This document shows positions 10,018 to 42,522 of a DNA stretch of 42,879 bases, piece by piece. The notes beneath the pieces are model-generated. The model searched no databases, had not been told where the DNA came from, and worked only from the letters and a program-made list of their open reading frames with translations. The position numbers were made by a program, and so were the translations under genes. The stretch comes from Kiritimatiellia bacterium (GTDB lineage Bacteria; Verrucomicrobiota; Kiritimatiellia; B70-G9), in NCBI GenBank assembly GCA_029934055.1, contig JAOZMZ010000006.1:1-42879 (forward strand), in the 5' to 3' direction. Position 1 is the first letter of the stretch. Every line of letters begins with the position of its first letter.

Positions 10018-10054
10018 CACCTGCGACAACCTGGTTGAATCCGTCGCCGACCTT

Positions 10055-10876: not shown

Positions 10877-10954
10877 GCTCTCCTCCACGTCAAAATTCTC
10901 CGCAACAGAGCCGCCCTCATCCTGCCCCAGGCGGCTCTTCCCTTGCAAGGGCCT

Positions 10955-13928: not shown

Positions 13929-13931
13929 CGG

Positions 13932-14939: not shown

Positions 14940-14967
14940 GGCAACACCTCCGGGCAGTCAGCCCGTA

Positions 14968-16188
14968 TCAGCGGAAACATATCCGCGCAATACAGTCATT
15001 GAAATCTTCCTCCCCACTCAGCAACTGAATTTCGACGCGCAGGAAGAAAAGCGGTATGTCGCGCCGCGCCACACGCGGAATGCGGACGGCATCCTTTTCA
15101 GTGGTGATCACCGCCTCGGCGCCGGCCTGCATGCCGCGGTTGATCACGTCGATGATTTCCTGCTCGGCATAACGGTGATGGTCGGCATAGCGCTCCCGGT
15201 ACACCACCTCGGCCCCGAGCCGTTCGAGTTCCTCTTCGAAACCCCAAGGCGCGGCTATGCCCGAAAGTGCCGCAACCTTGCGCCCCTGCAGGTATTCCAG
15301 CCCCTCCCGTTCGGCCGTATACACGTTCTGCAGGTAGCGGGGATGATGCCGGCATTCGGATACCTCAGCCGATGTGTTCCAGCGCCGCAGCTCGCGGCGC
15401 AATTCCTCGGCCCCGTCTCCGTCGGACTTGGTAATGAAAATGAACCCGGCCCGCCGGATGTTCCGTACCGGCTCCCGCAATATTCCGCGCGGCAGAACAT
15501 GGCGGTTGCCGAAAGGATTGGTGCGGTCCACCAGAACGATATCCAGCCGGTGCTTCAATGCCAGGTACTGGAAACCGTCATCCAGTATCAGCGTGTCACA
15601 ACCCAATTTCTTGATCGCATGCTGCCCCGCCTTGACCCGGTTCTTGTCCACCAGAACCGCAACCTTCGGCAGATTGGCCGCCAGCATGTAAGCCTCGTCG
15701 CCGGCCGCCGCCGAATCCAGCAAAAGCCGCCGTCCGTCAGATACCACCAGCGGCTCGCGCCGCCGGTCGCGGAACGTGATCTTCTGCACCAGGCGCTCCC
15801 ACAAGGGCGGCTTGACGCTCTTGTAACCGCGGCTGAGAATCGCCACCTTGCGCCCGCTCTCCTGAAGGGCCCGCGCGAAGATCTCGACGATGGGCGTCTT
15901 GCCCGTCCCTCCTACAGTAAGATTCCCCACGCTGACGACCTGGCACCCAAGCGTGTGATGCCGCAGGATGCCGTGGGTATACAGCCACAGCCTGATCTGA
16001 ACCGCCGTCGCATACAGGTGCGAGAGTTGCTTGAGCAGCCACCGCAACAATGCGGCTACTCTCCCGCGCTGACGTCCTTCAATGACGCCCAGCAAATAGG
16101 TTTCCGCCCGTTCGAGTCGTGTCTGGCTCACGGCAAATAATCCAAATCGTTGACCTTCAGCCGCCTCTTTCTTACGGCATGTTGCCAT
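14968..16188 (-). CDS. lpxK: Tetraacyldisaccharide 4'-kinase
   Basis: [40 protein letters not shown] is the LpxK P-loop signature. The track start at 16200 is TTG, so I used ATG 16188. A downstream GTG (VSQTRLER) is also possible. Confidence 0.9.
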
Positions 16189-16223
16189 CCCCGGCGACAA
16201 CCCGTCAAGTTGCGCACACCCGG

Positions 16224-23504: not shown

Positions 23505-24617
23505 TTGATCATGCCGAAAGAAAGATCCAAGGACATCTACGAAACCCGCTGGCCGCATGAGCAACCCCAGGGATTCGTCCGGCGCGGACAGCGCTCGATA
23601 TATTTCGACCTGGCGAAACAGGCACGCGCCTGGCGCCGGCGCACGATCATGCTGACATCCCTGCTGTTCATCGTGCTGGCGGCCATCGGCGTACTTTCGA
23701 TCATCAGTTCCCGTCCTCACGAAATCAATCCTCCGCCGTCGCGACCAGCGGCCTCTCCTAAAGAAAACATCCTCAACGTCAGCCGTGTCTCCCGCATCCA
23801 GATCACACCCGAGGCCTCGCTCCTCATAGACGAACTCGGCAACCAACCCGCCCTTGAGCCACCCGCGGAAGCCAGCGCCCCTTTCGATACACGCTGGCTG
23901 AAGCAGGCTGCTTACTATCTGGTGACGGCCGAGAAAGCCTATCGCGACGATCGCATGGAGGACGCCCTCAGATATTTCAGCAACGTTTTGAAAATATTCC
24001 CCGACCTGCAGGGCGTGCAGCGCTATTTGGGTCTCATATACCTGCGCCTGCAGGATTATTCTTCGGCGGCCGTGGCGTTTGAGAAGGCTTCCCGCGAAAA
24101 CGCCGCCTCGGCGGGCGTCGCCAATAATCTCGGGGTGGCGTACCTGGCCCTCAAGGACTATCTCCGCGCCGAACAGTATCTCAAGCGTGCCCTTGCATTG
24201 AAACCGGACTATGACCCCGCGATCCTGAACCTGGCCACCCTTTACATCCGCCGCAATGACAAGGCTCAGGCCGCCGTCTATCTAAGCCGCTACCTTCAGG
24301 TCAAACCCGGAGATATCAAGGCAGCCCAAACCTATGCTTCCATCCTGATGGACATCGGCAAGTGGGACCAGGCGGTGGTCTGGCTCAAACGCGTCTGCGA
24401 CAGCGTACCCAGCCTGGCCCCGGCTTACTTCCGGCTGGCCCAGGCATTGGCACATACCGGACATGATCAGGAAGCCATCGCCACGCTCCGGCATGGCGCC
24501 ACGCTTATCGACCCGCGCAAGGCACTCGCCTGGCTCTCGGCCGGATCATTCGATCCGATCCGCAAACATCCGGACTTCCAAAAGCTCGTGTCGGACCTCA
24601 GCGCAGCCGGCAGGTAA
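23505..24617 (+). CDS. Membrane-anchored TPR repeat protein (paralog of 22082..23302)
   Basis: Same architecture: cytoplasmic tail, TM helix (LTSLLFIVLAAIGVLSIISS), linker, TPRs (LGLIYLRLQDYSSAAVAFEKA, LGVAYLALKDYLRAEQYLKRALALKPDY). The C-terminal ...FDPIRKHPDFQKLV parallels ...QQPAFKEIRLTDL in the neighbour. Confidence 0.8.
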   Translation: MIMPKERSKDIYETRWPHEQPQGFVRRGQRSIYFDLAKQARAWRRRTIMLTSLLFIVLAAIGVLSIISSRPHEINPPPSRPAASPKENILNVSRVSRIQITPEASLLIDELGNQPALEPPAEASAPFDTRWLKQAAYYLVTAEKAYRDDRMEDALRYFSNVLKIFPDLQGVQRYLGLIYLRLQDYSSAAVAFEKASRENAASAGVANNLGVAYLALKDYLRAEQYLKRALALKPDYDPAILNLATLYIRRNDKAQAAVYLSRYLQVKPGDIKAAQTYASILMDIGKWDQAVVWLKRVCDSVPSLAPAYFRLAQALAHTGHDQEAIATLRHGATLIDPRKALAWLSAGSFDPIRKHPDFQKLVSDLSAAGR

Positions 24618-27018
24618 ACCGCCCGCCCCCACGGGGAAAAACCAGTTCGACCACATCATCCCCGCGCACCTCGACAATACAATTTCCATCCGGCCGGCCC
24701 TGCCGATAGGATTCCCACCATCCATAGCGCAGTCCGGCCGCCTGCAACCAGCGCCGCGGGTAGCCGATCCCGCCGTTCACAATCAGGAAAGGACGATAGG
24801 CCCGCAGGAACGCCGCCTCCCGTGGCCCCGGCGATTCGTTCATGTAACGAACAAGCACCACTTCACGACGGCCGCTGATTTTTCCCATCGCGGACAGGCC
24901 CTGCACCAATCGCGGAGGCGCCGCACCCGCCAGCATGACGGCAACCCCACCACGTTCCAATCGCAGTACGAGCGCCGCCGCACCCGCTCTCCGCGAAATG
25001 ACACCCTTGCGCGGTGCCAGTATCTCCCACCACACCCCTCCCGGCCATTGCCCCTGCATCCCGCTGTGAGCATACCGCACCTTAACGTCTCGCCGCCGTG
25101 CTTCCGCCAGGAAAAGGTCAAATGTTCGCGAAGAGACCGCAGACGCCGCATACCAGATTTCATCAACCTTCATTCGTTGCAGCAACTCGACCGCACCCCC
25201 CATACAGGCCGAGATCGGCCGGCTGACCACAAACACCCGCAGCCGGTTGCATCCCCTCCGGTGTAATTCTCTGAGTATCCTGCGGGTGCTCGGTCCCCTG
25301 CCGCTGTCCACCAGCACGTCCGCCGTTCCCGGCAGATCAATCAGGACCGGCAGCGTGTCACCGCCGTCGAAAACAGTTACGCTCGCCGTACCCCTCGTCC
25401 CGATCAGCGACAAAACAACCGCAGACGCCGCCAGGCCCGTCACGGCGGCCCGCCGCATGCGTCTCTTCCCAGTGACGATCGCCAGAATGCTGCCGTACCA
25501 GACAAGCAGGAACCACACCGGCGGCGCGCGCACGTACATGTGGCCCCACGGCACCTTCCCCAGCAATTCCACGACCTTGAGCAGTAATCCCGCGAAAACC
25601 ACATTGGCGTTGTTGAACACCCCCGCCAGCGGAGGAACCGCAAAACCCGCCACCAGCGCCAAGCATCCGGTGAACACCACAAGAAAAGCCCCCGGGACCA
25701 CAAGAATGTTTCCCACGGCGGCCGCCGGTGAAAATGTATTGAAATAGTACGCCGTCAGCGGAGCTGAAAACAGCCACGCCGCAAGAGATATACACCCCAG
25801 CCCGACAACCCCCGCCGCCGCTCGATACAGTGCCCTGCGCGCCACCCCGGAACCGCCGGCCGACCACGGCTCCTCAACGGGCACCAGAGAACCGACTCGA
25901 CCCGCCCACGGCAAGAACAGCATGATCCCCGCCACCACGGCAAATGACATCTGAAACCCGGGCTCCAGAATCTGACGCGGCGCAAACAACAGGATCAACA
26001 ACGCCGCCGCCGCCAACGCCGAGGGACCATCCGGGCGCCGCCCGAACAGCGGCGCCGAAAAGAACAACAAGGCCATTATGCATGCCCGTACGGCACTGGC
26101 CTTCATCCCGGTCGCCAGCGTATAAACCAAAAGGATCGGAGCAAGACCGGCAATCCACCAGCGCCGCGATAAGCCGAACGCCCGCAGCATGCCCACCGCC
26201 AAAGCCGCAATCATCCCCACGTGCAATCCCGAAATGGCGAAAATGTGCAATGTCCCCGTCAGCGCAAAGTCCCGCCGCACACGTTCCGGCAGGGCATCGC
26301 GATACCCCAGCAACAGCGCCCGCAGGAGCCCCGCCTCCACCCCTTCACCCTCAATCCCCATGCCGAGTATCTCCGCGCAATGCCTGCGGCCGCGCAGGCA
26401 GGCCTCCACCAAGAAATTGCCATGCCCACCCGCCAGGCGACGGTACTGCCCCCGCCCCACCCTCATGGTGTATCGCCGCAGCGGCGCTGCTCCTTCGCCG
26501 GCCGTCAATACCCCGCTCAATTCCATTCGATCCCCATATCGCGGCCTTCCCCCTTCCTCGTCTTGCCGCAGATATACCCGCACAACTCCTGCGGCTCTCA
26601 TGAGACTCCCATCCCGGTCGAAACCGTCCACCCGGAAAGGAAAGCGCCATACTCCGCCATTCTCCGCCCGCCTGCCGGCCTGTACGGGGTCACCGCCGAC
26701 AACCCCCGTCAAACGCACATATTCCCGTCCGGCACTCACACGTCGCCCCAGGTCCAGCGGGGAGACCACTCCGGCATTCGCCGCCGCCGCCGCTCCTGCG
26801 GCACAGGCCACCGCGGCGTAGACAAAAATCAACCCGCCCATCCTGCGGTATAGCAAAATCGCTCCCACACCGGACGCCATCCCCACGAGAACGAACGCCA
26901 GGATCCTTTCCGGTGAAAAAAGCCCGCAAGAGGTCCCCACGGCATAAGCCGCCGCCAATCCCACCAGCGGCCGTCGGATGAAAAACTCATATTTCACCGA
27001 GGACCTCCCCCCCCACAT
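24598..27018 (-). CDS. comEC: ComEC/Rec2 family DNA internalisation channel protein with a C-terminal metallo-beta-lactamase-like domain
   Basis: N-terminal OB/DUF4131-like region, then a polytopic core with LTGTLHIFAISGLHVGMIAAL (ComEC competence motif), then a C-terminal soluble domain. The start is ambiguous (track TTG 27024, ATG 27018, or GTG 26997 with a GGGAGG RBS). The 3' end overlaps the convergent TPR gene by 20 nt. Confidence 0.85.
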   Translation of the reverse strand: MWGGRSSVKYEFFIRRPLVGLAAAYAVGTSCGLFSPERILAFVLVGMASGVGAILLYRRMGGLIFVYAAVACAAGAAAAANAGVVSPLDLGRRVSAGREYVRLTGVVGGDPVQAGRRAENGGVWRFPFRVDGFDRDGSLMRAAGVVRVYLRQDEEGGRPRYGDRMELSGVLTAGEGAAPLRRYTMRVGRGQYRRLAGGHGNFLVEACLRGRRHCAEILGMGIEGEGVEAGLLRALLLGYRDALPERVRRDFALTGTLHIFAISGLHVGMIAALAVGMLRAFGLSRRWWIAGLAPILLVYTLATGMKASAVRACIMALLFFSAPLFGRRPDGPSALAAAALLILLFAPRQILEPGFQMSFAVVAGIMLFLPWAGRVGSLVPVEEPWSAGGSGVARRALYRAAAGVVGLGCISLAAWLFSAPLTAYYFNTFSPAAAVGNILVVPGAFLVVFTGCLALVAGFAVPPLAGVFNNANVVFAGLLLKVVELLGKVPWGHMYVRAPPVWFLLVWYGSILAIVTGKRRMRRAAVTGLAASAVVLSLIGTRGTASVTVFDGGDTLPVLIDLPGTADVLVDSGRGPSTRRILRELHRRGCNRLRVFVVSRPISACMGGAVELLQRMKVDEIWYAASAVSSRTFDLFLAEARRRDVKVRYAHSGMQGQWPGGVWWEILAPRKGVISRRAGAAALVLRLERGGVAVMLAGAAPPRLVQGLSAMGKISGRREVVLVRYMNESPGPREAAFLRAYRPFLIVNGGIGYPRRWLQAAGLRYGWWESYRQGRPDGNCIVEVRGDDVVELVFPRGGGRFTCRLR

Positions 27019-27031
27019 ACCCAACCCCCGT

Positions 27032-29327: not shown

Positions 29328-31271
29328 TCACTCTCCCGCCGGACCGTCGGCTCGCGTCACCCCGGCAGGTGTCTTTTCCTCCAGTAGACGGCGACAACGC
29401 CTGAGTTCCTTGTCGCGCGGGTTGTAAGCATAGCCCTCCTGCAACGCCTTACGCGCTTCTTCGGGCCTGCCAGAAGATGCCAGGCAAATCGAAAGATTCC
29501 TCCACAGAAATGCTCGGTGGCGGTAGGTCTCGGCAAGGACCCTGTATATCTCCGCCGCACGCCTGTAATCCCCGCACTCCATGTAGAATCCCGCCGTCCC
29601 CAACAGCCGCCATGAAATCGGCGCCAGCCCACCCGGCAGGCGCGGACGCCGGCTCCCCCGGCGGCATTCCTCCAGCGCCGCGTCTATCAGGTGCATTCCT
29701 TCCGGCGCCTTCGCCGCCAACCAACGTGAAAGATCCGGCGTCTGCCGGCCCTTTCGGATGAACACTGCCGACGTGCCATCGAAATATACCAGCCGCCAGT
29801 CGGCCCGCCGATTCAACTGTGCCGCAAAACGAATCCCGTCAGCGAAAACCGTGTTCACAAGGGCCGCATCCAGGCCATAACGCGCCACAAGTCTATCCCA
29901 GGCATGCGGCTTCAGCGCCAGGGCCGCCCGATACGAACGGAACGGCTCCGGACTGAAAAGTGTGCTCCGCCCGTCCATGAATACGCGGCGCTCCGGCAAG
30001 GCCCACTCGAGATACCCCCCGTCACCATAGAAGTTGAAAGTTCTGCCGGGGAAGTCCGGGTGTTTCATGACCTTCACCGCGTAACATGGAAAGACGTCCC
30101 GCTTGACCCCCAACCCTATGCTCATGCCGCTGCCCAACCACCCGTAATAACGGTTGCTCAACAGCAGCCACAGTACTCCCAGCGCCGCAATCCCATAACC
30201 CTTCCATACCGCCTTCAGCACGCGCCCCGGCCCGCGCGCCACAACCCCACCGATCACATCCGCCGTTTCCCCCAGCGAAAATGCAAGGAAGGGCATCCCG
30301 AAAGTCGCCAGCTGGTCAAGAAAGCGCACCGAGCGCCAAGTCGCCGCAGCACTCCAGATCATGAGCAGCATCACGGCTACCGGAATCCTGCGCCGTGCCG
30401 CCGCAAATCCAGCCGCGCTTACAATCAGCACACCCGTTATCAGCCACCTGATGTGCGGCAACCCGAAAGTGCCCGAGAACGGCGACTCCCATTCCACGAT
30501 GAACGCACGCGCCGGATCGTTCCAATGTGCCAGCAACGTTCCATATATGCGCACGCCGAACGGATTCACCAGCGTCGCCCCCAAAGTGAGCAATCCCAGA
30601 AACATCAGTCCCCGGCAGCGCACCACGCCGGCCAGCCACCTCTCTCCGGCCAAACGCCGCCGCAGTATCCGCTCCGCAAAATAGGCGGCGACAACCATCG
30701 GCCCCAATATGAAAGTAGGACTCAAATTTGCCCATACTGTTTCCAACAAAGCCAGTCCGAGCAACGTCCCGATCGGCACACTCTCATGTCCTTCACTTTC
30801 AAGGCGCGAAAGCCGGTCCATGAACAGCATCGAAATCGGCAGCGTGAGCAGATGTGGCCGCACCGTCATCCGCGGCGCGAGAGCAAACACGCAAACCAAC
30901 AACGCCCAGCCGGCCGCCGCCGGAGCCGCATAGCGCCTGGCAACCCGGTAGGCCAAGGCCAAGGCCGTCACCCCCGCGGCGGCATGCAGCAGTGTCAACA
31001 ATACCGGACCTCCGAGACGATAGAACGGCTGCAACAGCAACTGGTAAAGCCATTCGAATTCCAGCCAAGGACGTCCCTGCATCGTAAAAGAGAAATGATC
31101 CATCACCGGAATCCGACCGGCCTGCAATATCCAGCGACCAGTAGCCAGATGCCTCCACAAGTCGCGGCTGACCACCGGATGCATCCCCGCCGCCGCACCC
31201 GCCGCCAGAAGCAAAATCGGCCCGGCCCCGCGCCTCCAACCCGCTACTGCACTCTTTATCGCTTTGCTCAC
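29328..31271 (-). CDS. Polytopic membrane protein with C-terminal TPR repeats (GT-C/ArnT-like glycosyltransferase fold suspected)
   Basis: About 12 hydrophobic helices. The first periplasmic loop motif is DLWRHLATGRWILQAGRIPVMDHFSFTMQGRPWLEFEWLYQ. The C-terminus carries TPRs (AGFYMECGDYRRAAEIYRVLAE, LSICLASSGRPEEARKALQEGYAYNPRD). GTG start. The fold assignment is an inference. Confidence 0.75.
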   Translation of the reverse strand: MSKAIKSAVAGWRRGAGPILLLAAGAAAGMHPVVSRDLWRHLATGRWILQAGRIPVMDHFSFTMQGRPWLEFEWLYQLLLQPFYRLGGPVLLTLLHAAAGVTALALAYRVARRYAAPAAAGWALLVCVFALAPRMTVRPHLLTLPISMLFMDRLSRLESEGHESVPIGTLLGLALLETVWANLSPTFILGPMVVAAYFAERILRRRLAGERWLAGVVRCRGLMFLGLLTLGATLVNPFGVRIYGTLLAHWNDPARAFIVEWESPFSGTFGLPHIRWLITGVLIVSAAGFAAARRRIPVAVMLLMIWSAAATWRSVRFLDQLATFGMPFLAFSLGETADVIGGVVARGPGRVLKAVWKGYGIAALGVLWLLLSNRYYGWLGSGMSIGLGVKRDVFPCYAVKVMKHPDFPGRTFNFYGDGGYLEWALPERRVFMDGRSTLFSPEPFRSYRAALALKPHAWDRLVARYGLDAALVNTVFADGIRFAAQLNRRADWRLVYFDGTSAVFIRKGRQTPDLSRWLAAKAPEGMHLIDAALEECRRGSRRPRLPGGLAPISWRLLGTAGFYMECGDYRRAAEIYRVLAETYRHRAFLWRNLSICLASSGRPEEARKALQEGYAYNPRDKELRRCRRLLEEKTPAGVTRADGPAGE

Positions 31272-31417: not shown

Positions 31418-31467
31418 GTAAAACGTTTTAATAAACGATGGCTTGATGTGTGGAAAGGGTATCGGCG

Positions 31468-32418
31468 ATGAAGAAATTGCTTCCGATTCTCACTATTATC
31501 AGCCTTGGAGCGCTGGCGGGATGGTGTGCTGTGGTTGACTACGGCGCGGTCGACACCAGTGATACCCACCCGACCGTGGATGGATCTATAGGTGCAGGTG
31601 AATATGACCTCTCCGTAGCGGTACAAAATACAGGCTTCGGAGGGTTGTTCACTCATTTCTATGCGGACAGCGATGGAGAAAATCTATACTTCGGCGTAAA
31701 GTACAGCTCGTCCTTCGTAGACAACAACGCCATCGTCATCTATCTGGACAGCGATGCAGAGAAAAACCAGTCCTCCGTCTACGCGGGCGCGCGTTATCTG
31801 AGCGACGTAACCGACAACAGTAACTTCACTGAAATGTCGGCCGCCTTCCAAGGCAACAAAGACGGAGATCAGAACAATGATCCCGGATGGGGAACCGGAC
31901 CGAATTCATATGTCTTCGACGCCGACTTCGCTTTCGTGGTGGACGGTTACGCCGGTAACATCAGCGGCACCGCTACGGGTGATGCGGGCGACGGGAACCA
32001 GATGGCGTGCTACGGCTTCGACGTCGCTGATCTGAGCGATCTTGATTGGATCAGTTTCACCTACGCCAACAGTGACGGTAACGGCGTAGCCGAGTTCAGC
32101 ATCGCCATTTCGACGATGACCAATTACGCCCCCGCAAGTCTGACCGGAATCCTGAGCACCAATCCGGGCAACTATGAGGTGTATTTCTCGGCCCTGCTCC
32201 TCAATGCCGACAATGCTTGGCTGAGTAACGAATCCGTTCCGGCCGCCCACACATCCCAGGGCAACGGCTACATTGATGTCGTCAACGTCGGATCCTTCAA
32301 CTGGACGGTCAACGGCCCCGGGGACGGCGCCGTCCCCGAACCTCATACGGCCACATTGGCGATCACCTTCGGCCTCGTGCTGGTAGGAATCCGCCGCCAT
32401 CTGCGTCGCAAGGCCTGA
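31468..32418 (+). CDS. PEP-CTERM sorting-domain secreted protein
   Basis: N-terminal signal peptide (MKKLLPILTIISLGALAGWCA), an Asp/Gly/Asn/Ser-rich beta-type body, and C-terminal VPEP + TM (HTATLAITFGLVLVGI) + basic tail (RRHLRRKA), which is the exosortase sorting signal. GC is noticeably lower than in the flanks. Confidence 0.85.
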   Translation: MKKLLPILTIISLGALAGWCAVVDYGAVDTSDTHPTVDGSIGAGEYDLSVAVQNTGFGGLFTHFYADSDGENLYFGVKYSSSFVDNNAIVIYLDSDAEKNQSSVYAGARYLSDVTDNSNFTEMSAAFQGNKDGDQNNDPGWGTGPNSYVFDADFAFVVDGYAGNISGTATGDAGDGNQMACYGFDVADLSDLDWISFTYANSDGNGVAEFSIAISTMTNYAPASLTGILSTNPGNYEVYFSALLLNADNAWLSNESVPAAHTSQGNGYIDVVNVGSFNWTVNGPGDGAVPEPHTATLAITFGLVLVGIRRHLRRKA

Positions 32419-32596: not shown

Positions 32597-34405
32597 TCAC
32601 CCCCTGATGGCGGCCAGGCGGCGCCCCAGTTCCGCCCCGATGGCCTGGACAAGACGGACGTCCCGGCGACTGAAGCGGCGCGGGTTGTGAATCGCAACCA
32701 GAAAGATGTCGCCGCTGCGGACCAGCGTCAGTGGTCGGCCCTCAATAAAGACCGTAAGAGATTCAAGTCCGCCCATGTCGAGTTGCTTTATGTACCAGGC
32801 GATTTTCTTGTAAATCTGGGGCGCGAAAGCCCCCAGCGCTTCACTGTGATCATCTTCCCAGCTTGATGTCACCAGGTAGCCTTCACGGTGCGCCACTACG
32901 CAACCCTCGAAACTCTCAATGGTGGCGAAGCGCGCGGCCACGCCGCGCACATCCGGCAACCCATCGCGGGTATGCCCCAATATCATGTTGATCACGCCTG
33001 CATTGCGGAAAATATCTTCGCGCAACTTTATTCCTGTGATGCGTTCAAAGGTCTGCCGGCCGAGACCCGGTACGCGTGCCAGGTCCAGAAGGTTGAAGAA
33101 CGGTCCATTCTTCGAACGGTCGGCCACAATCCGCTCCGCCAGGCGCCTTCCCACACCGTCCAGCCGCCGTGCAATCTCATCGGCCCCCGCACTGTTGAGA
33201 TCCATACCCTTGAGAAACAGGTAGGCGCGTTCTTCCATCTCCTCGGCAAACACGGGCGGCACCTTCTCGCCGACGGACTCCTCCTTGCCCTCCTCCGGCA
33301 CACCCTGTACAAGCTCAGCCGCCGGCGCGCTTGGCGTCGAAACCACCGTACCCGTATCCACGGCGGCTGCCGGGGATTCCTCAGCCCCGGCGCCCTCCGC
33401 CGAAACCTCAAGCGGCTCGGCCGCACGCCCCTCTTCCGCCTCCGGCGCACGGGCCTCAGCAGAAAAAGCCGCCGCCTCCTCCACCGCTTCCTCGGCTTCC
33501 TTTGCTTCCGCCGGTAACCCGACATCTTCTTCGACTGCGGCAGCTGCCGGCTCCTGGTCGGACATCACCGTCGCTTCCTCCGAAACTTCCTCAAAGCTCT
33601 CGGCAACCTTCGACTCCTCTGCCGCCGGCTCCTCCTCCACACCCGCCGCTGCTTCCACCACTTGGGGCCCAACCTCCTCGCCCTCATGCGAGACCCCCTC
33701 TTCCGAGACAGCCCCTTGCGCCGCGGACGCCTGTGTCTCAGGACCGGGCTCCGCAACCGCACCACTCGTCTCCACAGTCACCTCTCCGGCCGCCACTTCC
33801 CCGCCTGCTCCGGGTGTAAACAAATTGGGAAGTTCTTCCGGAATTGAAACCTCTTCCGACGACATCCGCTTTAACAGTTCATCTTCAGGTATTGCACTGA
33901 CCACCGCCGCCAGCGGCAAGGTGACCTCTTCTTTGGCATGTGCCACCCACCCGTCGGCCATGAATTTGTCCGGGATTTCGGAAACCACGTCCGATACCAC
34001 CGCACTTACGCGCCCGCGTGCCAACTGATCGAACACATCATGTACCACAACCCCAACTTTTATCCCGGCCCGGGATGCCTCCGCAGGATCACGCAGGATA
34101 CTTTCCGGCAGGGTGGTGGCCAGGTCGCTCAAGGATATCTCAAGGGTCATGCTCTGTTCGGATATGGCCGTGCTTCCCCCTTCGTCATCATCCTCCCCGA
34201 TGATCTCATTGATCTCGGCCAGCTGCCGCCGTATCCTGTCGAGCTGACCGAGTTCCGTCTCTTCGCCGGACTCCTCGGATGGAGCCACAGCCGGAGAGTC
34301 CGCAGAAGAAGAATCAGCATGCGTCCCGCGTGGTTCCTCTTTCGCTGAAGGAACCTTTTCCTCCCCCTTGACGCCGTGCCTGAAAATGTTACCCAAGAGT
34401 GACAC
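32597..34405 (-). CDS. Acidic multidomain protein: N-terminal repeat region, Glu/Ala-rich disordered linker, ComEA-like helix-hairpin-helix module, C-terminal Roadblock/LC7 domain
   Basis: HhH: LNSAGADEIARRLDGVGRRLAERIVADRSKNGPFFNLLDLARVPGLGRQTFERITG (ComEA C-terminal pattern). Roadblock-like tail: VRGVAARFATIESFEGCVVAHREGYLVTSSWEDDHSEALGAFAPQIYKKIAWYIKQLDMGGLESLTVFIEGRPLTLVRSGDIFLVAIH. Start set at GTG 34405, 7 nt after AGGAGG; the track start 34465 is TTG. Confidence 0.8.
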   Translation of the reverse strand: MSLLGNIFRHGVKGEEKVPSAKEEPRGTHADSSSADSPAVAPSEESGEETELGQLDRIRRQLAEINEIIGEDDDEGGSTAISEQSMTLEISLSDLATTLPESILRDPAEASRAGIKVGVVVHDVFDQLARGRVSAVVSDVVSEIPDKFMADGWVAHAKEEVTLPLAAVVSAIPEDELLKRMSSEEVSIPEELPNLFTPGAGGEVAAGEVTVETSGAVAEPGPETQASAAQGAVSEEGVSHEGEEVGPQVVEAAAGVEEEPAAEESKVAESFEEVSEEATVMSDQEPAAAAVEEDVGLPAEAKEAEEAVEEAAAFSAEARAPEAEEGRAAEPLEVSAEGAGAEESPAAAVDTGTVVSTPSAPAAELVQGVPEEGKEESVGEKVPPVFAEEMEERAYLFLKGMDLNSAGADEIARRLDGVGRRLAERIVADRSKNGPFFNLLDLARVPGLGRQTFERITGIKLREDIFRNAGVINMILGHTRDGLPDVRGVAARFATIESFEGCVVAHREGYLVTSSWEDDHSEALGAFAPQIYKKIAWYIKQLDMGGLESLTVFIEGRPLTLVRSGDIFLVAIHNPRRFSRRDVRLVQAIGAELGRRLAAIRG

Positions 34406-34787
34406 CTCAACACCTCCTGCGATTCGCCGCTTACCATCAATAAATCTACAACATTTCGGAAGCAATTAACATGCCACCGATGGTTTTCCCCGCTCTCTTC
34501 TTGATATGCCGGCGCCACCATGGACTCTTCTTTAGCAGACCCCGCAGGTAGGCGCCCCCCGCCTGTTTGCTGAAGCCGTGCAAGACCCTTGGCTGCGGAT
34601 CACCCTGTCAATTTCGCATTTATGCAAAGTAACACTTCACCTTTGAACTGAAGGAACCCGGCTCTCCGCGACAGGATCCCACCCGCGAGTGCTTCCTCTC
34701 CGGGCGGCATCACGTGCAGCGACACCATATCTGTCAATCCAGTAGCCGCCACTCCCACCGCCCGCCCGCCGGCCGTACCGATCCGCC

Positions 34788-34815
34788 CATCCGGCGCGTC
34801 ATCCGGAACATCCGG
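34788..34815. repeat. Three direct copies of CATCCGG (spacing 12 and 9 nt) in the mglA upstream region
   Basis: CATCCGG is read directly at 34788, 34800 and 34809. The last two copies occupy the position where a -35 element would sit relative to the TGcGATAAT element. Confidence 0.5.
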
Positions 34816-34826
34816 ATATCCCGCGA

Positions 34827-34835
34827 TGCGATAAT
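34827..34835 (+). promoter_or_regulatory. Candidate extended -10 promoter element (TGcGATAAT) for mglA
   Basis: TG-n-GATAAT lies ~60 nt upstream of GTG 34896. There is no good -35 element; the CATCCGG repeats sit there instead. Confidence 0.3.
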
Positions 34836-34895
34836 GGCTTGGCCCGCGGCATGATTTCTGCTCTTATGCGGTTAGATCGTTGTGGAGGTGATACC

Positions 34896-35537
34896 GTGGC
34901 GTTCGTCAACATGGCCCGCAAGGAGATTGCTTTCAAGATCGTCTATTACGGCCCCGCCCTCGGCGGCAAAACTACCAATCTGGAACAGATACACGGGGCC
35001 ATACAGCCTGAATCCCGCGGAGAGTTGACCATTCTCTCGACCCGTCAGGACCGCACCCTCTTCTTCGATTTTCTGCCGCTTCGTTCGGATATAATCCGCG
35101 GATTCTCTTCCAAGTTTCAACTCTACACTGTACCCGGACAGACGATTTACAATGAAACCCGTAAGCTCGTGCTGCGCCATGTGGACGGCATCGTATTCGT
35201 AGCGGATTCCCAGTGGGAAAAAATGGAAGACAACACGCTCAGCTTTCAGAACATGCAGGACAACTTGCGCGAACAAAACACCTCGATCGATCAGATTCCG
35301 TACGCTCTGCAGTACAACAAACGCGACCTTCCCAACATCGCACCGGTCCACTACATGGACTTCCTGCTTAACCGCCGTCGCGTGCGCGTACCCCGTTTCG
35401 AATCGATCGCCATCGAGTGTCGCGGCGTGTTCGAAGCGCTCAATACGGTTTCCCGCATGGTCTTGGCGGCTTTCATCCGCGAACACCGCCTCGGTCACGG
35501 GGAACTGCCCGAAGACGTCTGCATTTCAAAAGAGTAG
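34896..35537 (+). CDS. mglA: Ras-like small GTPase MglA
   Basis: [32 protein letters not shown]...[16 protein letters not shown]...[33 protein letters not shown]...[14 protein letters not shown]...[14 protein letters not shown] is colinear with my recollection of Myxococcus MglA ([63 protein letters not shown]). GTG 34896 has GGAGG 7 nt upstream and restores the conserved N-terminus. Confidence 0.92.
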   Translation: [213 protein letters not shown]

Positions 35538-35542
35538 GGCGA

Positions 35543-36025
35543 ATGTATTATTCAATGACCAGAGAGCTGAGCGAAAAAATCGAAACCCTCCTATCCGACC
35601 TGCTCGTGCGGGCTGAAGCCGACGCAGTATTCCTGTGTGACCGCGGCGGCAACATCATGGCCCAGAAGACCACCGAACACTATGTTCACGAAGAAAACAT
35701 CGCAGCCCTGGCCGCCGGATCTTTTTTCGCCACCAGGGAACTTGCACGGTTGATCGGCGAACCGGAATTCAAGTATATTTTCCACCGCGGAGACCGCACC
35801 AGTATCTACATGCAACATACCCCGCTGGATATGTTGCTGATGGTGGTATTTGGAAAGGCCTCCAATCCGGGCATCGTGAGGCTGTACGCGGAGGAAACCG
35901 TCCGTTCCCTGGCCCCGCATATCGAGAAAATCGCCGGCCCGGATGAGACAGTGGGCCTGAATATCGAAATAGACCGGAGTCAGGAACCTTTCAAACGTGC
36001 AACCGAGCCCGAAAAAACAGGATAA
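35543..36025 (+). CDS. mglB: Roadblock/LC7 protein MglB (MglA GTPase-activating partner)
   Basis: ADAVFLCDRGGNIMAQ...NIAALAAGSFFATRELARLIGEPEFKYIFHRGDRTSIYMQ...MLLMVVFGKASNPGIVRLY parallels my recollection of Myxococcus MglB (AKVVFLVDKNGQLIS..LASLTAGNVAAMGGLAKLIGENEF..FHEG..LVVIFD..LGLVRL). It starts 5 nt after the mglA stop. Confidence 0.88.
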   Translation: MYYSMTRELSEKIETLLSDLLVRAEADAVFLCDRGGNIMAQKTTEHYVHEENIAALAAGSFFATRELARLIGEPEFKYIFHRGDRTSIYMQHTPLDMLLMVVFGKASNPGIVRLYAEETVRSLAPHIEKIAGPDETVGLNIEIDRSQEPFKRATEPEKTG

Positions 36026-36827
36026 CCAAAAAAACGATTCGGAAGCCTCCGCTGCCGGCGGACCCCCTCCCGGACACGGCAGCGCGGAATATTTCCTGCT
36101 CCTGATGGGAGTCGTCATTCCCTTGCCGGAAAACAAGGAAACCGTACTGGGCCGCGATGAAGACTTGTGTGACGTGGTCCTCGTTGATCACCGTGTCAGT
36201 AAACGTCACGCCACGATCTTCTTCCGCAGCGGCCGATTCTTCATAAGTGACCTCGAAAGCCTCAATGGCACCTTCCTCAATGGACATCAGCTCAAACAAA
36301 CCGCTCCGTTGGTCGCCGACGATGAAATCCTGATAAGGCCCTACAAGATATCATTTGTGGGAAGTGACCATCCGGAAGTGGCCCGCACATCCCGCCGCGT
36401 GTTGGTTTCCAACGCCAGCCGCCATTCCGGCCATTTGGCCGGATCACTGGAAATATTCTCCGTGATAGACGTAATTCAATTGCTGAATGCAACCCGCCAG
36501 AACGGCATCCTGCGCATTACCGATTCCCACCGCCGCGGCGCCAGTCTCGTTTTCGCGGATGGCGAAATAATAGCCGCCACCTACGGGAAACTAGCCGGTG
36601 AAGAGGCGGTCATCGCCGTAGTCCCTCTCCACGAAGGACACTTCGACTTTATGCCGGGGCCACCCCCGAAAACGCCCATCCCCATCCCCAAGAAAACACT
36701 CACCCTCCTCCTGGAGGGCTGTCGGCGTTTGGATGAAGAACGTCCGGCACAAGAAAGCGGCCGGACTGAGGACGAGAAACTCGGCCCGCGCACCCGCCGT
36801 ATCGTCCGTATTTCCGGAAGGAAATGA
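35997..36827 (+). CDS. FHA domain + DUF4388 (PATAN-type) domain protein
   Basis: FHA: TVLGRDEDLCDVVLVDHRVSKRHATIFFRSGRFFISDLESLNGTFLNGHQL. DUF4388-like: GSLEIFSVIDVIQLLNATRQNGILRITDSHRRGASLVFADGEIIAATYGKLAGEEAVIAVVPLHEGHFDF. The only in-frame start I found upstream of the FHA core is GTG 35997, which overlaps mglB by 29 nt. Confidence 0.8.
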   Translation: MQPSPKKQDNQKNDSEASAAGGPPPGHGSAEYFLLLMGVVIPLPENKETVLGRDEDLCDVVLVDHRVSKRHATIFFRSGRFFISDLESLNGTFLNGHQLKQTAPLVADDEILIRPYKISFVGSDHPEVARTSRRVLVSNASRHSGHLAGSLEIFSVIDVIQLLNATRQNGILRITDSHRRGASLVFADGEIIAATYGKLAGEEAVIAVVPLHEGHFDFMPGPPPKTPIPIPKKTLTLLLEGCRRLDEERPAQESGRTEDEKLGPRTRRIVRISGRK

Positions 36828-36841
36828 ATTCCGTAGAGAAT

Positions 36842-38032
36842 TCAATTTCGGACTGCTCCCCTTTCACCTTCCTCCAATACCCGATAGACCTCCCGCACCT
36901 TGTGCTTGAAACTTGCCAGACTGTAACGCGCCGCAACCCTCGCCACCGCCTCCCTGCCGAGCGCCGCCGCCAGCAGCGGCTCCCGGATCCCCCGTAAGAT
37001 ACCCGCCGCCAGGTCTCCGGCCTGGGGATTGACCAGAATCGCACAATCCTGATCCAGAACCTGGGTGTGAGTATCCAGACGCGTCGCCACGATCGGACGT
37101 CCGCTCTGCATGTAGGTGTATATCTTCAAGGCCGTATTTTCACCCCGTATCCGCGGCGAAACCAACACCGTGGCCGCCGTCATGAAAGCCGCCATCTCAT
37201 TCATCGGACGCTTGCCGGCGAAAATGCATACATCCCCCAAATCAAGATCGCTCGCCACTGCCCGCATACGTTCCACCTGCTCGGGCTCGCCCCCCGCCAG
37301 AACAAAACGCACCGCCGGCTCCCGTTCATGAACCAGACGGGCCGCCCGGATCAACAACTCCACCCCCTGGTAACTCTCAAAGTTACCCGTGTAGACGACC
37401 GCCGGTTCATCTCCCAGCCCGAGTTCCTCCCTCAAGCGCCGCGCGCCTTCAATGTCATCCTGAAAAGATGCCTGAATGGGTGCATCTTCGATCTGGACCA
37501 CCCGCGCCGACGGACATCTGCGGCGCACCTCGTCCGACAACCGCTTGCACACGGTCAACACAACGTCCGCGCGGCACATCGCCCGCTTCTCCAAATGTCG
37601 CACCAGTCCGATCACCGGTGCGAGAGTCACGAACCCCGTATACTGCAACTGGTCCGAAATACAGGAATCCATGTCGTATACCAGCCGCGCCCCCGCCATA
37701 CCCGCCAACCATCCGGCAAAAAAAACAGATTCCTCAACCGCATGAATCACATCGTAACCTTCCCGTCGAACAAGACCGAAAGCGTGCAGAAACATGAGAA
37801 GGTCCAAGGGGATCTTGGCCAGTGAAGGGCCCACTTTCACGTCTCGGACAGCGGGCGGACGCCTTACACGATGGATGCGGACCCCGGGTATCTCCAGATC
37901 TTCCCCGAAAGGATAACACAGCAGATCAACCCGGTGCCCGGCTTCCGCCAGGGCGGTAACGACGTTGCGTATATTGATCGGTGTACCGCGAATCCGGAAA
38001 AACGGCTGCGGCGCCAGAAACAACACCTTCAT
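36842..38032 (-). CDS. Glycosyltransferase family 4
   Basis: MKVLFLAPQPFFRIRGTPINIRNVVTALAEAGHRVDLL... and C-terminal VLVSPRIRGENTALKIYTYMQSGRPIVATRL are GT-B/GT4 features. ATG 38032 was chosen over the track start 38062. Confidence 0.85.
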   Translation of the reverse strand: MKVLFLAPQPFFRIRGTPINIRNVVTALAEAGHRVDLLCYPFGEDLEIPGVRIHRVRRPPAVRDVKVGPSLAKIPLDLLMFLHAFGLVRREGYDVIHAVEESVFFAGWLAGMAGARLVYDMDSCISDQLQYTGFVTLAPVIGLVRHLEKRAMCRADVVLTVCKRLSDEVRRRCPSARVVQIEDAPIQASFQDDIEGARRLREELGLGDEPAVVYTGNFESYQGVELLIRAARLVHEREPAVRFVLAGGEPEQVERMRAVASDLDLGDVCIFAGKRPMNEMAAFMTAATVLVSPRIRGENTALKIYTYMQSGRPIVATRLDTHTQVLDQDCAILVNPQAGDLAAGILRGIREPLLAAALGREAVARVAARYSLASFKHKVREVYRVLEEGERGAVRN

Positions 38033-38282
38033 TTTCTCTTCCTGCTGCAGGGCGACCGTCATTACACGGAACCGAATGCATTATTCACGCTCTGCTTGAA
38101 TAATCCACTACAATGATGCCACCGGAAACGCCCACACCCGCCCGCATGAGACCGGCCCGGAACAATATCTACACGCAAGCCCCGTATTCTACGGGAAACC
38201 TGCAGGGAAAAAGCCCCGCACACTGAGGCCCCTCATTCCCACAATTCGTACGAAATCCGGCAAATTCCCCTCTCATACATAT

Positions 38283-38349: not shown

Positions 38350-39177
38350 ATGGCCAAACTGTTGAAGCCGCTGATCGTAGTTCTGCTCGTCCTCAGTATC
38401 GTTTCCCTGGTCTTGGGAATAATGCTCTTCGGCCGCAGAGAAGTCCTCAAAGGCCGCGCCGCAAAATTTGAAGACGCCGTAGTCAAGTTCGCGGAAAAGA
38501 TCCATTTCGAACAGCTTGACCGACAGATGTTGCAGGACTACGCAGCAATGCAAGTACCCCTCGAGCATCTGGCGGCCTTTGCCGACAACCAGTATGAAAA
38601 ACTTCAGAATACCATCCAGGACTTGGACAAGACCCGCGGCGAACTACAGCAGGCCACCAACCGTATCGTCGAACTGACCGCCCATCTGGAGGAAACCCAA
38701 CAGAAAGTCACAGAGCTGCAGGATCAGCTCGAGGCCAAAGACGTCGAACTGGCACAGGCCAACAGCCGCGTCGACCAGTTGACGCAGGACAAGAGTCTCC
38801 TCGAGGAGCAAGTAAGCAAGCTCAATGACAAACTCGTGGCGGCCGAAGAACAAACCCGGGACCTGCAGGACCAGGTGACAACCCTGGAGAATACCGTTCA
38901 AGACATGGAGGTACGCCTGGGCGAACGCTTGGCGGCCCCACTGCCCAAAGGACTCTCCGGCCACGTTCTCGTCGTCGATCCATATTGGAATTTCGTAGTC
39001 CTGGACATCGGCAGCAAGGACGGACTGGCGCCCAGCGCCGAAATGCTCGTGCACCGCGGCGAGAAGCTTGTCGGAAAGGTCCGCATCAGCTCAGTCAAAG
39101 AGAAAATGGCGATTGCTGAAATCGTGAGCGACTGGGAACAAGTCCCCATACGGGAGGGTGACTATGTTCTCTACTAA
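38350..39177 (+). CDS. Membrane-anchored coiled-coil protein with a C-terminal MreC-like beta-barrel-type domain (hypothetical)
   Basis: N-terminal TM helix (LLKPLIVVLLVLSIVSLVLGIMLF). About 130 aa of heptad-rich Gln/Glu/Leu sequence follow (LQQATNRIVELTAHLEETQQKVTELQDQLEAKDVELAQANSRVDQLTQDKSLLEEQVSKLNDKL...). The tail is GHVLVVDPYWNFVVLDIGSKDGLAPSAEMLVHRGEKLVGKVRISSVKEKMAIAEIV...IREGDYV. Confidence 0.8.
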   Translation: MAKLLKPLIVVLLVLSIVSLVLGIMLFGRREVLKGRAAKFEDAVVKFAEKIHFEQLDRQMLQDYAAMQVPLEHLAAFADNQYEKLQNTIQDLDKTRGELQQATNRIVELTAHLEETQQKVTELQDQLEAKDVELAQANSRVDQLTQDKSLLEEQVSKLNDKLVAAEEQTRDLQDQVTTLENTVQDMEVRLGERLAAPLPKGLSGHVLVVDPYWNFVVLDIGSKDGLAPSAEMLVHRGEKLVGKVRISSVKEKMAIAEIVSDWEQVPIREGDYVLY

Positions 39178-39510: not shown

Positions 39511-40407
39511 TCAGGACGTCCGCTTCTTGCGCCCGCGCCCGATGCCCAAATAGTCGGCGATATTCGCCCCCGTGACGACACGCGGCAATATTGATCCCGC
39601 TCCGGCGGTCATGAGCACCTGGACCCCGGGACCATGCCCCGTCAAACGGGAATCACAGTGAATTATCAGCCCGATGCTCACCGCACCTCGGCGAAAACCA
39701 AACCCGAAACGGCAATCCTGATCCATCAAGGCAACGATGTCACCAAGACGCAATCCATCCAGACCGTGCTCGCGCAGGGCACCCATATCCTGCGTCTGAA
39801 TATCATAGTCGCCCTTGAAGCTGTCGTTCTGTCCCACACCGGAACCCATCAGCTCCGGTGGTACCACGGCCGCCACCGGGACTTCCACACGCCCCCCGCT
39901 GCGCAGCCGCACTCTCATGCGCCGTAACAAGCGCGGTGACATGCCGAAAAACTTGATCCCCGGCGCATCCAACAGACTCAATCCGGTCCCCCATGCTCTG
40001 ATCAAAACCTTGTCGTCCATGGTCAGACGTCCCATCACATCCTCCGGAAAATCCACCAGGACATGCTCCACGCCGCCATGACGCCCCGTGACCACACCCC
40101 AGCGGCCGGCTGCCGCCCCGCTGATCAGACGAACCCGATTGCCGACGCATGCGTAAGCATTGAATGCCCGGTTCGGATTGGCATCAAGATGCTCCCGGGA
40201 TGCAGTCAGCGATACCCCCGGCTCAACATGGTCCCCCTCCCACCCAAAAGCCGGGTCCCCTACACGCACATTGTAAGTAATCCCCCCTACCGCCGGAAGT
40301 ATTGCGCACGTCCCCTCCTGGGTGACCTCCCATCCGTAACACTTGGGCGGCATCACCGCCCCCTGCACGGCCATTTCCACCAGGGTGCCTTCGTTCGTAC
40401 GCAACAC
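39511..40407 (-). CDS. DUF4438 domain-containing protein
   Basis: MLRTNEGTLVEMAVQGAVMPP...ILPAVGGITYNVRVGDPAFGWEGDHVEPGVS... matches my recollection of the DUF4438 family (N-terminal L+TN...LV...V.G.V). GTG start with GAGGG 9 nt upstream. Confidence 0.75.
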   Translation of the reverse strand: MLRTNEGTLVEMAVQGAVMPPKCYGWEVTQEGTCAILPAVGGITYNVRVGDPAFGWEGDHVEPGVSLTASREHLDANPNRAFNAYACVGNRVRLISGAAAGRWGVVTGRHGGVEHVLVDFPEDVMGRLTMDDKVLIRAWGTGLSLLDAPGIKFFGMSPRLLRRMRVRLRSGGRVEVPVAAVVPPELMGSGVGQNDSFKGDYDIQTQDMGALREHGLDGLRLGDIVALMDQDCRFGFGFRRGAVSIGLIIHCDSRLTGHGPGVQVLMTAGAGSILPRVVTGANIADYLGIGRGRKKRTS

Positions 40408-41493: not shown

Positions 41494-42522
41494 TCAGCGC
41501 ATGTCGCGTGGCGGCGCGGTCGACTCCCGCTTGGACAATGCCCCGGCTATCAATTCCCTCCCCGCATCCAGCTCTCCACGGAAAAGCTGTAACACCACTT
41601 CGCAGGCCCGCCGCCCGAGGGTGTAAAGAGGATGGTGCACCGTGGTCAGCCCCGGCGTAGTAAAACGCGCATCCGGTATATCATCGACCCCCATTATCGA
41701 TATATCCTCAGGCACCTTCAGCCCATGCGTATGCACGTACCGCATCGCGCCGATCGCCATACGGTCATTGGCGGCCATGATCGCCGTTATTGACTGCGAC
41801 TCGGATAAGAGCTTCTCGGCCGCCCGGAATCCGTCCTCTTGACTCCAATCCCGTCCGCCTTCGGTCACCACGATATCCTTCTCCCGGCAGCCCCGGCAGG
41901 TACAGGCCGCTATGAACGCGTCCCGGAAATCCCGCCCGGTATATGTATTTACACCGGCGATCAACCCTATCCGGCAATGTCCCAGTCCGGTCAGGTGCTC
42001 CGCCGCCTGCCGTGCAGAATCCTTGTAGTCGATCATTATGTAATTCAGATCCGTATCAGGGTAATAGTGGTTGACCAAGAGAAACGCGTCTTTGCGGCCG
42101 TCGAATTCCTTCAGGTAAGTGTCCTCCATGGAAGAGGCGATAAAGAGCATCCCGTCCACCCGCCGCGTCTTGAGGATATTGAGGTACTCGCGATTCTGCA
42201 CGAACTTGCGGTTGGCTACGTCCAACATGACCTTGTAATCGTGTTCGGATGCGTAGTCATAGATCCCGCTTACTATTTCCCCGAAATATATATCAGCAAA
42301 TACGTGTCTCAAATGGGGTACAACTACGCTTACCATCCGGCTGGACCGCGACGCCAGCGCCCGCGCCTGCATGTTCGGCTGGTAGCCGAACTTTTCGACC
42401 GCCGCCAGAACCCGCGCCCTCGTCTTGGCACTGATCCGCGGACTGTTGTTGAGTACCAGCGAAACCGTGCTCAGGGAAACGCCGCACTCCCGCGCAATAT
42501 CGCTTATCGTCGTGCGTTTCAT
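41494..42522 (-). CDS. LacI family transcriptional regulator
   Basis: MKRTTISDIARECGVSLSTVSLVLNNSPRISAKTRARVLAAVEKFGYQPNMQARALA is the LacI/GalR HTH, followed by a periplasmic-binding-protein-like sugar-binding core. Confidence 0.92.
   Translation of the reverse strand: MKRTTISDIARECGVSLSTVSLVLNNSPRISAKTRARVLAAVEKFGYQPNMQARALASRSSRMVSVVVPHLRHVFADIYFGEIVSGIYDYASEHDYKVMLDVANRKFVQNREYLNILKTRRVDGMLFIASSMEDTYLKEFDGRKDAFLLVNHYYPDTDLNYIMIDYKDSARQAAEHLTGLGHCRIGLIAGVNTYTGRDFRDAFIAACTCRGCREKDIVVTEGGRDWSQEDGFRAAEKLLSESQSITAIMAANDRMAIGAMRYVHTHGLKVPEDISIMGVDDIPDARFTTPGLTTVHHPLYTLGRRACEVVLQLFRGELDAGRELIAGALSKRESTAPPRDMR

Follow-up and report, generated by a model that had tools for sequence, protein, structure and literature searches.

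What is a module of the DNA-binding type doing in the same polypeptide as a Roadblock domain, a GTPase platform, when the gene lies beside those of a Ras-like polarity switch? The question is raised by a 42,879-nucleotide stretch of DNA from a Kiritimatiellia bacterium (GenBank assembly GCA_029934055.1, contig JAOZMZ010000006.1, positions 1 to 42,879), hereafter the window. The gene concerned (32597..34405, minus strand, stop codon included) is a single uninterrupted open reading frame (ORF). Its product is a single chain of 602 amino acids in which an N-terminal motif resembling a membrane-targeting sequence, a compact domain that we call the N-module, a disordered linker, a double helix-hairpin-helix domain, (HhH)2, and a Roadblock/LC7 domain follow one another. 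We place this protein firmly as a conserved, cytoplasmic accessory component of the MglA/MglB module (or MglA/MglB/PATAN module) that combines a Roadblock tail with an intact-looking DNA-binding module. Our preferred explanation goes further, and regards it as a scaffold or adaptor, cytoplasmic and probably peripheral to the membrane, that serves this polarity GTPase module in bacteria of the PVC (Planctomycetes–Verrucomicrobia–Chlamydiae) group; we assign that reading a probability of about 0.55.

The modules of a single chain

The (HhH)2 domain, of the HHH_3/ComEA type, occupies residues ~396-460 (33026..33220, minus strand) and has a net charge of +4. Pfam HHH_3 matches residues 400-458 with an E-value of 6.3e-15 (55.5 bits against a cutoff of 27), and the hairpins follow the ComEA pattern, in agreement with a sequence-only reading of the locus that preceded this analysis. 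Among the NCBIfam models, TIGR00426, which covers the ComEA HhH repeat region, falls marginally below its cutoff (51.1 versus 53.1 bits), and TIGR01259, built for full-length comEA, reaches 29 bits where 152.35 are required. Searching the Protein Data Bank (PDB) with a profile of seven relatives retrieved EEPD1 (8e-13), ComEA (8dfk, 1.9e-9), Tex (3e-8) and also KIF22 for the HhH part. An AlphaFold2 (AF2) monomer model, built on a 79-sequence family alignment, gives residues 395-460 a helical (HhH)2-type arrangement with a predicted local distance difference test score (pLDDT) of ~97, the helices lying within 408-467. Across the 127 family members described below, N404, G417, A423, R430, G434, F436, L442, G447, G449 and G458 are conserved in 81-100% of sequences; both G-phi-G hairpins and R430 are kept, and basic residues follow the second hairpin, as in ComEA. 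Such conservation is the pattern expected of a working (HhH)2 domain and suggests purifying selection; the domain probably binds nucleoid DNA.

An ordered helical connector (residues 461-484; 32954..33025, minus strand; pLDDT ~86), with helices at 463-467 and 469-476 and with L476 conserved in 85% of sequences, leads into the Roadblock/LC7 domain and its C-terminal helix (residues 485-602; 32600..32953, minus strand). Sequence comparison alone identifies this tail marginally. Pfam Robl_LC7 (PF03259) is just under its cutoff over residues 493-571 (E-value of 1.4e-4, 21.9 bits against 23), one relative (P0007) has a precomputed PF03259 match, and the PDB profile search returned an Odinarchaeota Roadblock protein (7f8f) with an E-value of 1.3e-4. 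It is the AF2 model that settles the assignment: residues 485-601 are predicted, with pLDDT ~97, to form the order alpha-beta-beta-alpha-beta-beta-beta-alpha, which is a Roadblock fold. Foldseek aligned the modelled tail to Asgard Roadblock proteins, Myxococcus xanthus MglB, p14/MP1 of the Ragulator and dynein LC7, with a probability of 1.00 and target TM-scores mostly of 0.64-0.84. The sequence-only reading had recognized this tail and had placed both domains in one protein, and both statements hold: the two lie in one ORF and co-occur in relatives.

Within the Roadblock fold the family has invariant residues of its own, namely G501-C502, D508-G509, H573 and, at the start of helix alpha2, A526-x-x-P529-Q530-x-x-K533. 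In MglB, helix alpha2 provides the principal contact with MglA (PMC3199381). The protein shares with MglB of Thermus thermophilus and M. xanthus the fold, including the C-terminal helix, an adjoining mglA and a conserved alpha2 surface, but it is four times longer, carries three extra modules, is marginally related in sequence and occurs at a locus that has a separate, canonical mglB. Classification as an MglB orthologue was considered and rejected, given that the NCBIfam MglB model NF052242 did not match the family protein, that hhalign aligned the family Roadblock profile to the neighbouring MglB family with a probability of 8% (E-value of 0.004, in the correct beta1-beta2-alpha2 register) and that a canonical mglB adjoins.

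The N-terminal region begins with a hydrophobic-basic motif, MSLLGNIFRHGVK (residues 1-13; 34367..34405, minus strand), a putative amphipathic helix for membrane targeting or partner binding. The pattern M-[SA]-[LF]-[LF]-x-x-[LI]-F-[KR] forms the extreme N-terminus in 50 representatives, with hydrophobic residues at positions i, i+1, i+4 and i+5 followed by basic residues; it resembles N-terminal membrane-targeting helices such as that of MinE, a likeness that we take as a lead rather than a result. Further along, a conserved amphipathic helix, LDRIRRQLAEINEIIGE (residues 51-68; 34202..34255, minus strand; modelled as a helix with pLDDT ~70 and conserved in the family alignment), precedes the N-module (residues 82-181; 33863..34162, minus strand). 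The N-module is modelled at pLDDT 96-98 as four units, each a beta-strand and a short helix, packed into a compact domain of ~100 amino acids with two related halves. Units 1, 3 and 4 are mutually related (hhalign probability of 84-94%), as are the two halves (91.5%). The two related N-terminal segments that had been noticed from the sequence therefore extend into one four-unit beta-alpha domain, to which both belong. Among 105 family members the module occurs once or twice per protein. No relative of it was found in Pfam (45 members scanned), in NCBIfam, by PDB sequence profile, or by Foldseek against the PDB and the viral BFVD; a word-indexed search with the N-module profile returned only 5 fragments and was uninformative. 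As modelled, the N-module has a fold that is predicted with confidence and for which we know of no described relative. A short motif, LPNLF (residues 192-196; 33818..33832, minus strand), closes the region, with P193 and F196 present in at least 90% of sequences in two alignments.

Between LPNLF and the (HhH)2 domain lies a Glu/Ala/Val/Pro-rich linker (residues ~197-389; 33239..33817, minus strand) of ~190 amino acids, with 25% Glu, 23% Ala and 13% Val, a pLDDT below 50 and a net charge of -44. The disorder and the Glu/Ala richness are as the sequence-only reading described them; its suggestion that acidity marks a polar hub protein does not extend to the family. Across 105 full-length members the linker ranges from 34 to 403 amino acids, with a net negative charge in 89 and a net positive one in 14, so that the acidic-hub interpretation was rejected as a family trait. 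On these comparisons the segment behaves as a Pro/Ala/Glu-rich spacer rather than as a specific acidic hub motif. In the protein of the window, the acidic linker could compete with DNA for the adjacent (HhH)2 domain of charge +4, an effect that cannot hold throughout the family, as the linker is basic in some members. The chain has no hydrophobic segment (the maximum Kyte-Doolittle score over 19 residues, KD19, is 1.09), and we therefore regard the protein as cytoplasmic.

The start codon and the integrity of the ORF can be read with some assurance. GTG at 34405 is the likely translation start, because the Shine–Dalgarno sequence AGGAGG (34413..34418, minus strand), read directly in the sequence, lies 7 nucleotides upstream, the N-termini of relatives align at the equivalent position and the N-terminal motif is shared; all full-length relatives in the alignment start at the residue equivalent to this GTG. 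A longer version from TTG 34465 was considered and is unsupported, as the conserved motif and AGGAGG both point to GTG 34405. In metagenome unitigs from four independent samples (hydrothermal vent and marine sediment), variation in the ORF consists of substitutions only, and all three indels among these populations fall in the 490-bp intergenic stretch (34406-34895) between this gene and the divergent mglA. A frameshift or a chimeric assembly is therefore very unlikely, and the view that this is one ORF rather than two joined genes, already taken from the sequence, is strengthened by the recurrence of the architecture in relatives. A promoter and terminator scan gave nothing above background, and a simple scan of 34406-34895 identified no sigma-70-like promoter.

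A recurrent place beside mglA, mglB and PATAN genes

The first gene across the intergenic stretch is mglA (34896..35537, plus strand), which is divergent from the family gene and encodes a Ras-like GTPase with a TVPGQ signature and an E-value of 1.4e-59 to M. xanthus MglA (6h17). Its likely start is GTG 34896, which has GGAGG upstream and aligns with the MglA N-terminus (SFINY/AFVNM). It is followed by mglB (35543..36025, plus strand), which encodes the Roadblock GTPase-activating protein (GAP) of MglA (E-value of 8.4e-14 to M. xanthus MglB, 6h5b; Pfam Robl_LC7, 6.8e-9; NCBIfam MglB, 2.5e-15, with 56.9 bits below the cutoff of 200) and which probably starts at ATG 35543, 5 nucleotides after the mglA stop. 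The mechanically called ORF starts are overlong for both genes (34839-34898 for mglA and 35417-35545 for mglB). The next gene (35997..36827, plus strand; true start perhaps ATG 36105) encodes a protein with FHA and PATAN (DUF4388/PatA_N) domains (Pfam E-values of 3.6e-18 and 2.2e-18, respectively).

This neighbourhood is a property of the family and not of one contig. The family gene adjoins mglA and mglB in 11 of 12 informative loci (L001, L002, L004, L006-L011, L013 and L015), all of which except L013 repeat the arrangement of the window, and wherever the flanking sequence is long enough a PATAN gene lies close to the family gene, again except in L013. (A pattern-exact scan of genome contigs yielded only 7 loci.) The tie to an MglA switch that had been proposed from the sequence is thus stronger than it was, resting now on bona fide mglA and mglB genes that recur. 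The association of PATAN genes with mglA/mglB neighbourhoods is documented (Makarova 2006; Wuichet 2014; PMC4316618), and in the cyanobacterium Synechocystis the motor of the type IV pilus is bound by PATAN regulators (bioRxiv 10.1101/2021.06.11.447907).

The exceptional locus, L013 (7239-13287), belongs to a distant member (P0098) and contains, in order, genes for an MshEN protein, a PilB-like ATPase with MshEN and T2SSE domains, the family protein, MglA and MglB. The ATPase gene lies directly upstream of the family gene on the same strand, an arrangement that forms a possible operon linking the family to a type IV pilus or to a motor like that of type II secretion systems. The PilB-like gene occurs in L013 only, and in neither the window nor the other loci. 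Taken with the binding of PATAN regulators to the cyanobacterial pilus motor, this PilB-like neighbour suggests that the output of the module is control of pili or of polarity.

Proximity to comEC had been noted from the sequence and taken as a hint of a role with incoming DNA. The distance is as stated, with comEC (24598..27024, minus strand) 5.6-8 kb from the family gene; the functional part finds no support. Between the two lie thiD, two TPR/membrane genes and a PEP-CTERM-like gene on mixed strands, and a tblastn search of all loci with the ComEC and ThiD sequences of the window found them only in L001 and L002, the two closest relatives. A functional link to comEC was accordingly rejected, given that the gene is nearby only in the window and these two loci and that opposite-strand genes intervene, and the proximity is, on the sequences compared, most simply local synteny.

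Beyond the FHA-PATAN gene, the window has a glycosyltransferase family 4 (GT4) gene (36842..38062, minus strand) and then a gene for a 275-amino-acid coiled-coil protein (38350..39177, plus strand), which gave generic coiled-coil matches only. In L001, L002 and L007 the coiled-coil gene is found shortly past the FHA-PATAN gene, whose other side faces mglB. The coiled-coil protein may belong to the module, and the GT4 gene resembles an insertion particular to this locus.

Other genes of the window touch the family gene in position only or lie apart from it. The PEP-CTERM-like gene (31450-32418, plus strand) encodes a 322-amino-acid protein that ends in a PEP-CTERM-like sorting signal (…VPEPHTATLAITFGLVLVGIRRHLRRKA) and has no Pfam match; it sits between the family gene and a gene for a 647-amino-acid multi-pass membrane/TPR protein (29328-31271, minus strand). 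A second FHA protein of 563 amino acids, with an FHA/Yop-YscD_cpl N-terminal domain and no assignment for the rest of the chain, is encoded at 17265-18956 (minus strand), ~14 kb from the MglA module. Genes for a MurJ flippase, three or four glycosyltransferases (GT4 and GT2), a GT9 heptosyltransferase and LpxK lie at 8437-16200 (minus strand), a cell-envelope cluster that indicates biosynthesis of lipid A and the lipopolysaccharide core. At 39511-40407 (minus strand) is a protein with DUF4438 N- and C-terminal domains (E-values of 9e-54 and 2e-44), followed by a LacI-family regulator at 41494-42522.

A widespread family and a sister family without the HhH domain

The sequence-only reading regarded the fusion as an unusual, isolated combination, a view that the extent of the family contradicts. 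A full-length homologue search gave only 8 proteins, as words from the low-complexity region crowded the candidates; it was replaced by domain sub-alignments and by an exhaustive HMMER search of 1.84 billion representatives (50% identity clusters) with an HhH-plus-Roadblock profile. This returned 167 clusters at E-values of 1e-30 or below. Among the best 156 of the 167, 127 run from the HhH domain through the Roadblock domain in a single stretch, so at least 127 clusters at 50% identity carry both, and 105 of these 127 also have the N-module; the architecture recurs at 22-45% identity. The remaining sequences are mostly N-terminally truncated fragments from contig ends or unrelated proteins with multiple HhH motifs. 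Several short members (P0018, P0042, P0043, P0059 and P0091; 200-230 amino acids) consist of the HhH and Roadblock domains only and begin with Met, and may be either contig-end fragments or genuine short forms without the N-module and linker.

Named members come from metagenome-assembled genomes of Kiritimatiellae, Verrucomicrobiota and Lentisphaerota. We found no mention of the HhH and Roadblock combination in the searchable literature, which agrees with the earlier impression that it had not been described; automatic annotation does label both domains, as in the IMG entry for one member, ‘DNA uptake protein ComE-like DNA-binding protein/predicted regulator of Ras-like GTPase’.

A sister family, found in Chthoniobacteraceae and other Verrucomicrobiota, is larger still and comprises at least 248 clusters at 90% identity. 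Its members have the same N-terminal motif, an N-module that is usually doubled, a disordered linker and a Roadblock tail, without an HhH domain, and are annotated only as ‘Roadblock/LC7 family protein’ or ‘hypothetical protein’. Examples are P0008, P0163-P0281 and the genes at L003 2299-4008 and L012 10001-11962, and they include one from a complete 7.8-Mb genome. In L003 and L012 the sister gene is directly upstream of mglA-mglB and co-directional with them, with a gene for a REC (receiver)-PATAN protein alongside. The families thus differ in that the one in the window has the HhH domain and diverges from mglA, whereas the sister lacks the domain and is co-directional. Because the sister family shares these parts without the HhH domain, that domain appears to be an accretion onto an older scaffold.

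Candidate roles of the protein

The closest functional analogy appears to be the RomR/MglC/MglB complex of M. xanthus, in which a Roadblock adaptor and a disordered scaffold set polarity (PMC10329633). MglC is a second, non-GAP Roadblock protein and RomR a long, disordered, Pro/Glu-rich and mostly acidic scaffold; here, both features are found in one chain. The family protein differs from RomR in having no receiver domain (no Response_reg match in Pfam or NCBIfam), and neither MglC nor RomR has a DNA-binding module; the likeness is one of functional analogy only. Because a separate bona fide mglB is present, the role of the Roadblock domain would be that of an MglC-like adaptor rather than of a GAP. 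As Roadblock domains do, it would dimerize, and the conserved face of its alpha2 helix may form the docking site for MglA or MglB. Anchoring, whether to the membrane, to a polar landmark or on the PATAN or type IV pilus motor side, could be the task of the N-terminal motif together with the N-module.

How the (HhH)2 domain would fit this scaffold is conditional on what it binds. It may contact double-stranded DNA without sequence specificity, which would couple the complex to the surface of the nucleoid, and because the connector between the HhH and Roadblock domains is ordered, Roadblock dimerization could bring two (HhH)2 units together and raise their avidity for DNA. The spacer, with a contour length of up to ~70 nm, could bridge membrane and chromosome, and the nucleoid might then serve as the reference for where the MglA switch sits or how active it is, for example if free MglA-GTP were kept to poles devoid of nucleoid. 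The boldest form of this idea, which we put forward only tentatively, is a tether running from membrane to nucleoid, through which a Ras-like polarity switch would take its spatial bearings from the chromosome: a dimeric HhH-Roadblock head on DNA would capture or regulate MglA/MglB while the N-terminal part holds the membrane or the PATAN/pilus motor. Such a protein would be an analogue of the Ragulator type. The tail matches p14/MP1 of Ragulator/LAMTOR at the level of the fold, and the anchoring of a Roadblock GTPase platform by an N-terminal anchor and flexible tether would be similar; LAMTOR itself has multiple subunits, is anchored through lipidation of p18 and has no DNA-binding part.

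Several observations count against the scaffold reading or its DNA-binding component. HHH_3-type folds can have roles besides DNA binding, and the sister family does without the domain, which suggests that DNA binding is an add-on rather than a core function. The partner of the Roadblock domain cannot be read from homology, so distant does its sequence appear from the MglB family. AF2 predicts no helix for the N-terminal motif (pLDDT ~49), for which the suggested membrane role is an argument from resemblance, and none of the RNA sequencing runs searched carries the family gene. At one locus, L014 (10001-13623; member P0157), mglA and mglB were not found within 10 kb of the family gene, and a 574-amino-acid fusion of a faint MshEN domain with PATAN is encoded downstream; the PATAN partner may be more constant than the GTPase.

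Some of these points bear on whether the same MglA/MglB scaffold carries an (HhH)2 domain that no longer binds DNA and instead serves as a structural or partner module, for example by stabilizing the Roadblock dimer, with no link to the nucleoid. An ordered, conserved connector to the Roadblock domain would suit a structural role, a sister family that functions without the domain is compatible with one, the strongly acidic adjoining linker (-44) could mask the basic surface, and TIGR00426 is just below cutoff. We nevertheless consider this rather unlikely: across 127 members the ComEA pattern is retained in both G-phi-G hairpins, at the invariant Arg430 and in the basic residues that follow hairpin 2, the domain has a net charge of +4, and the best solved relatives, ComEA, Tex and EEPD1, are nucleic-acid binders.

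The database label ‘ComEA-like’ suggests a different function, in which the HhH domain would handle incoming DNA at a type IV pilus/ComEC machine positioned by MglA/MglB. The protein does share with ComEA the Pfam family HHH_3 and the hairpin pattern of its (HhH)2 domain, comEC is 5.6-8 kb away here and also near in L001 and L002, and in L013 the gene immediately before the family gene, with the same orientation, encodes the PilB-like ATPase with its MshEN domain. ComEA, however, acts outside the cytoplasmic membrane, whereas this protein has no signal peptide, membrane anchor or membrane span and its partners are cytoplasmic; with the full-length model TIGR01259 far below cutoff (29 against 152 bits), these differences are why we do not identify it as ComEA. 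DNA passes through ComEC as a single strand, whereas the contacts of HhH motifs are with the backbones of duplexes. The comEC synteny is not conserved in the flanks of loci other than L001 and L002, and four mixed-strand genes intervene in the window. A competence or DNA-uptake factor is thus an improbable explanation. Hardly credible at all is an artefact, that is, two genes merged by a frameshift or a chance ORF running through low-complexity sequence. The low-complexity middle does have alternative ORFs on both strands, and some database members of 200-240 amino acids comprise only the HhH and Roadblock domains, although most of these look like contig-end fragments; the full architecture is nevertheless present in 105 representatives at 22-45% identity, in four metagenome samples the ORF varies by substitution alone, every indel being intergenic, and the Shine–Dalgarno sequence and GTG start sit exactly at the conserved N-terminal motif.

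The HHH_3 and Roadblock domains and the MglA/MglB/PATAN neighbourhood were already known; what is new is the architecture of the family, the insertion of a DNA-binding module into a GTPase-platform protein, and the N-module. For annotation, the label ‘ComEA-like competence protein’ is misleading, as it would wrongly suggest natural transformation. Control of polarity by MglA/MglB is known almost only from Myxococcus, with some work on Thermus and Bdellovibrio, and PVC bacteria now gain a large, conserved accessory protein of this module that is undescribed in the searchable literature. We know of no described example of a small-GTPase polarity module that is physically linked to the chromosome; if the HhH domain of this family binds the nucleoid, it would provide such a direct link.

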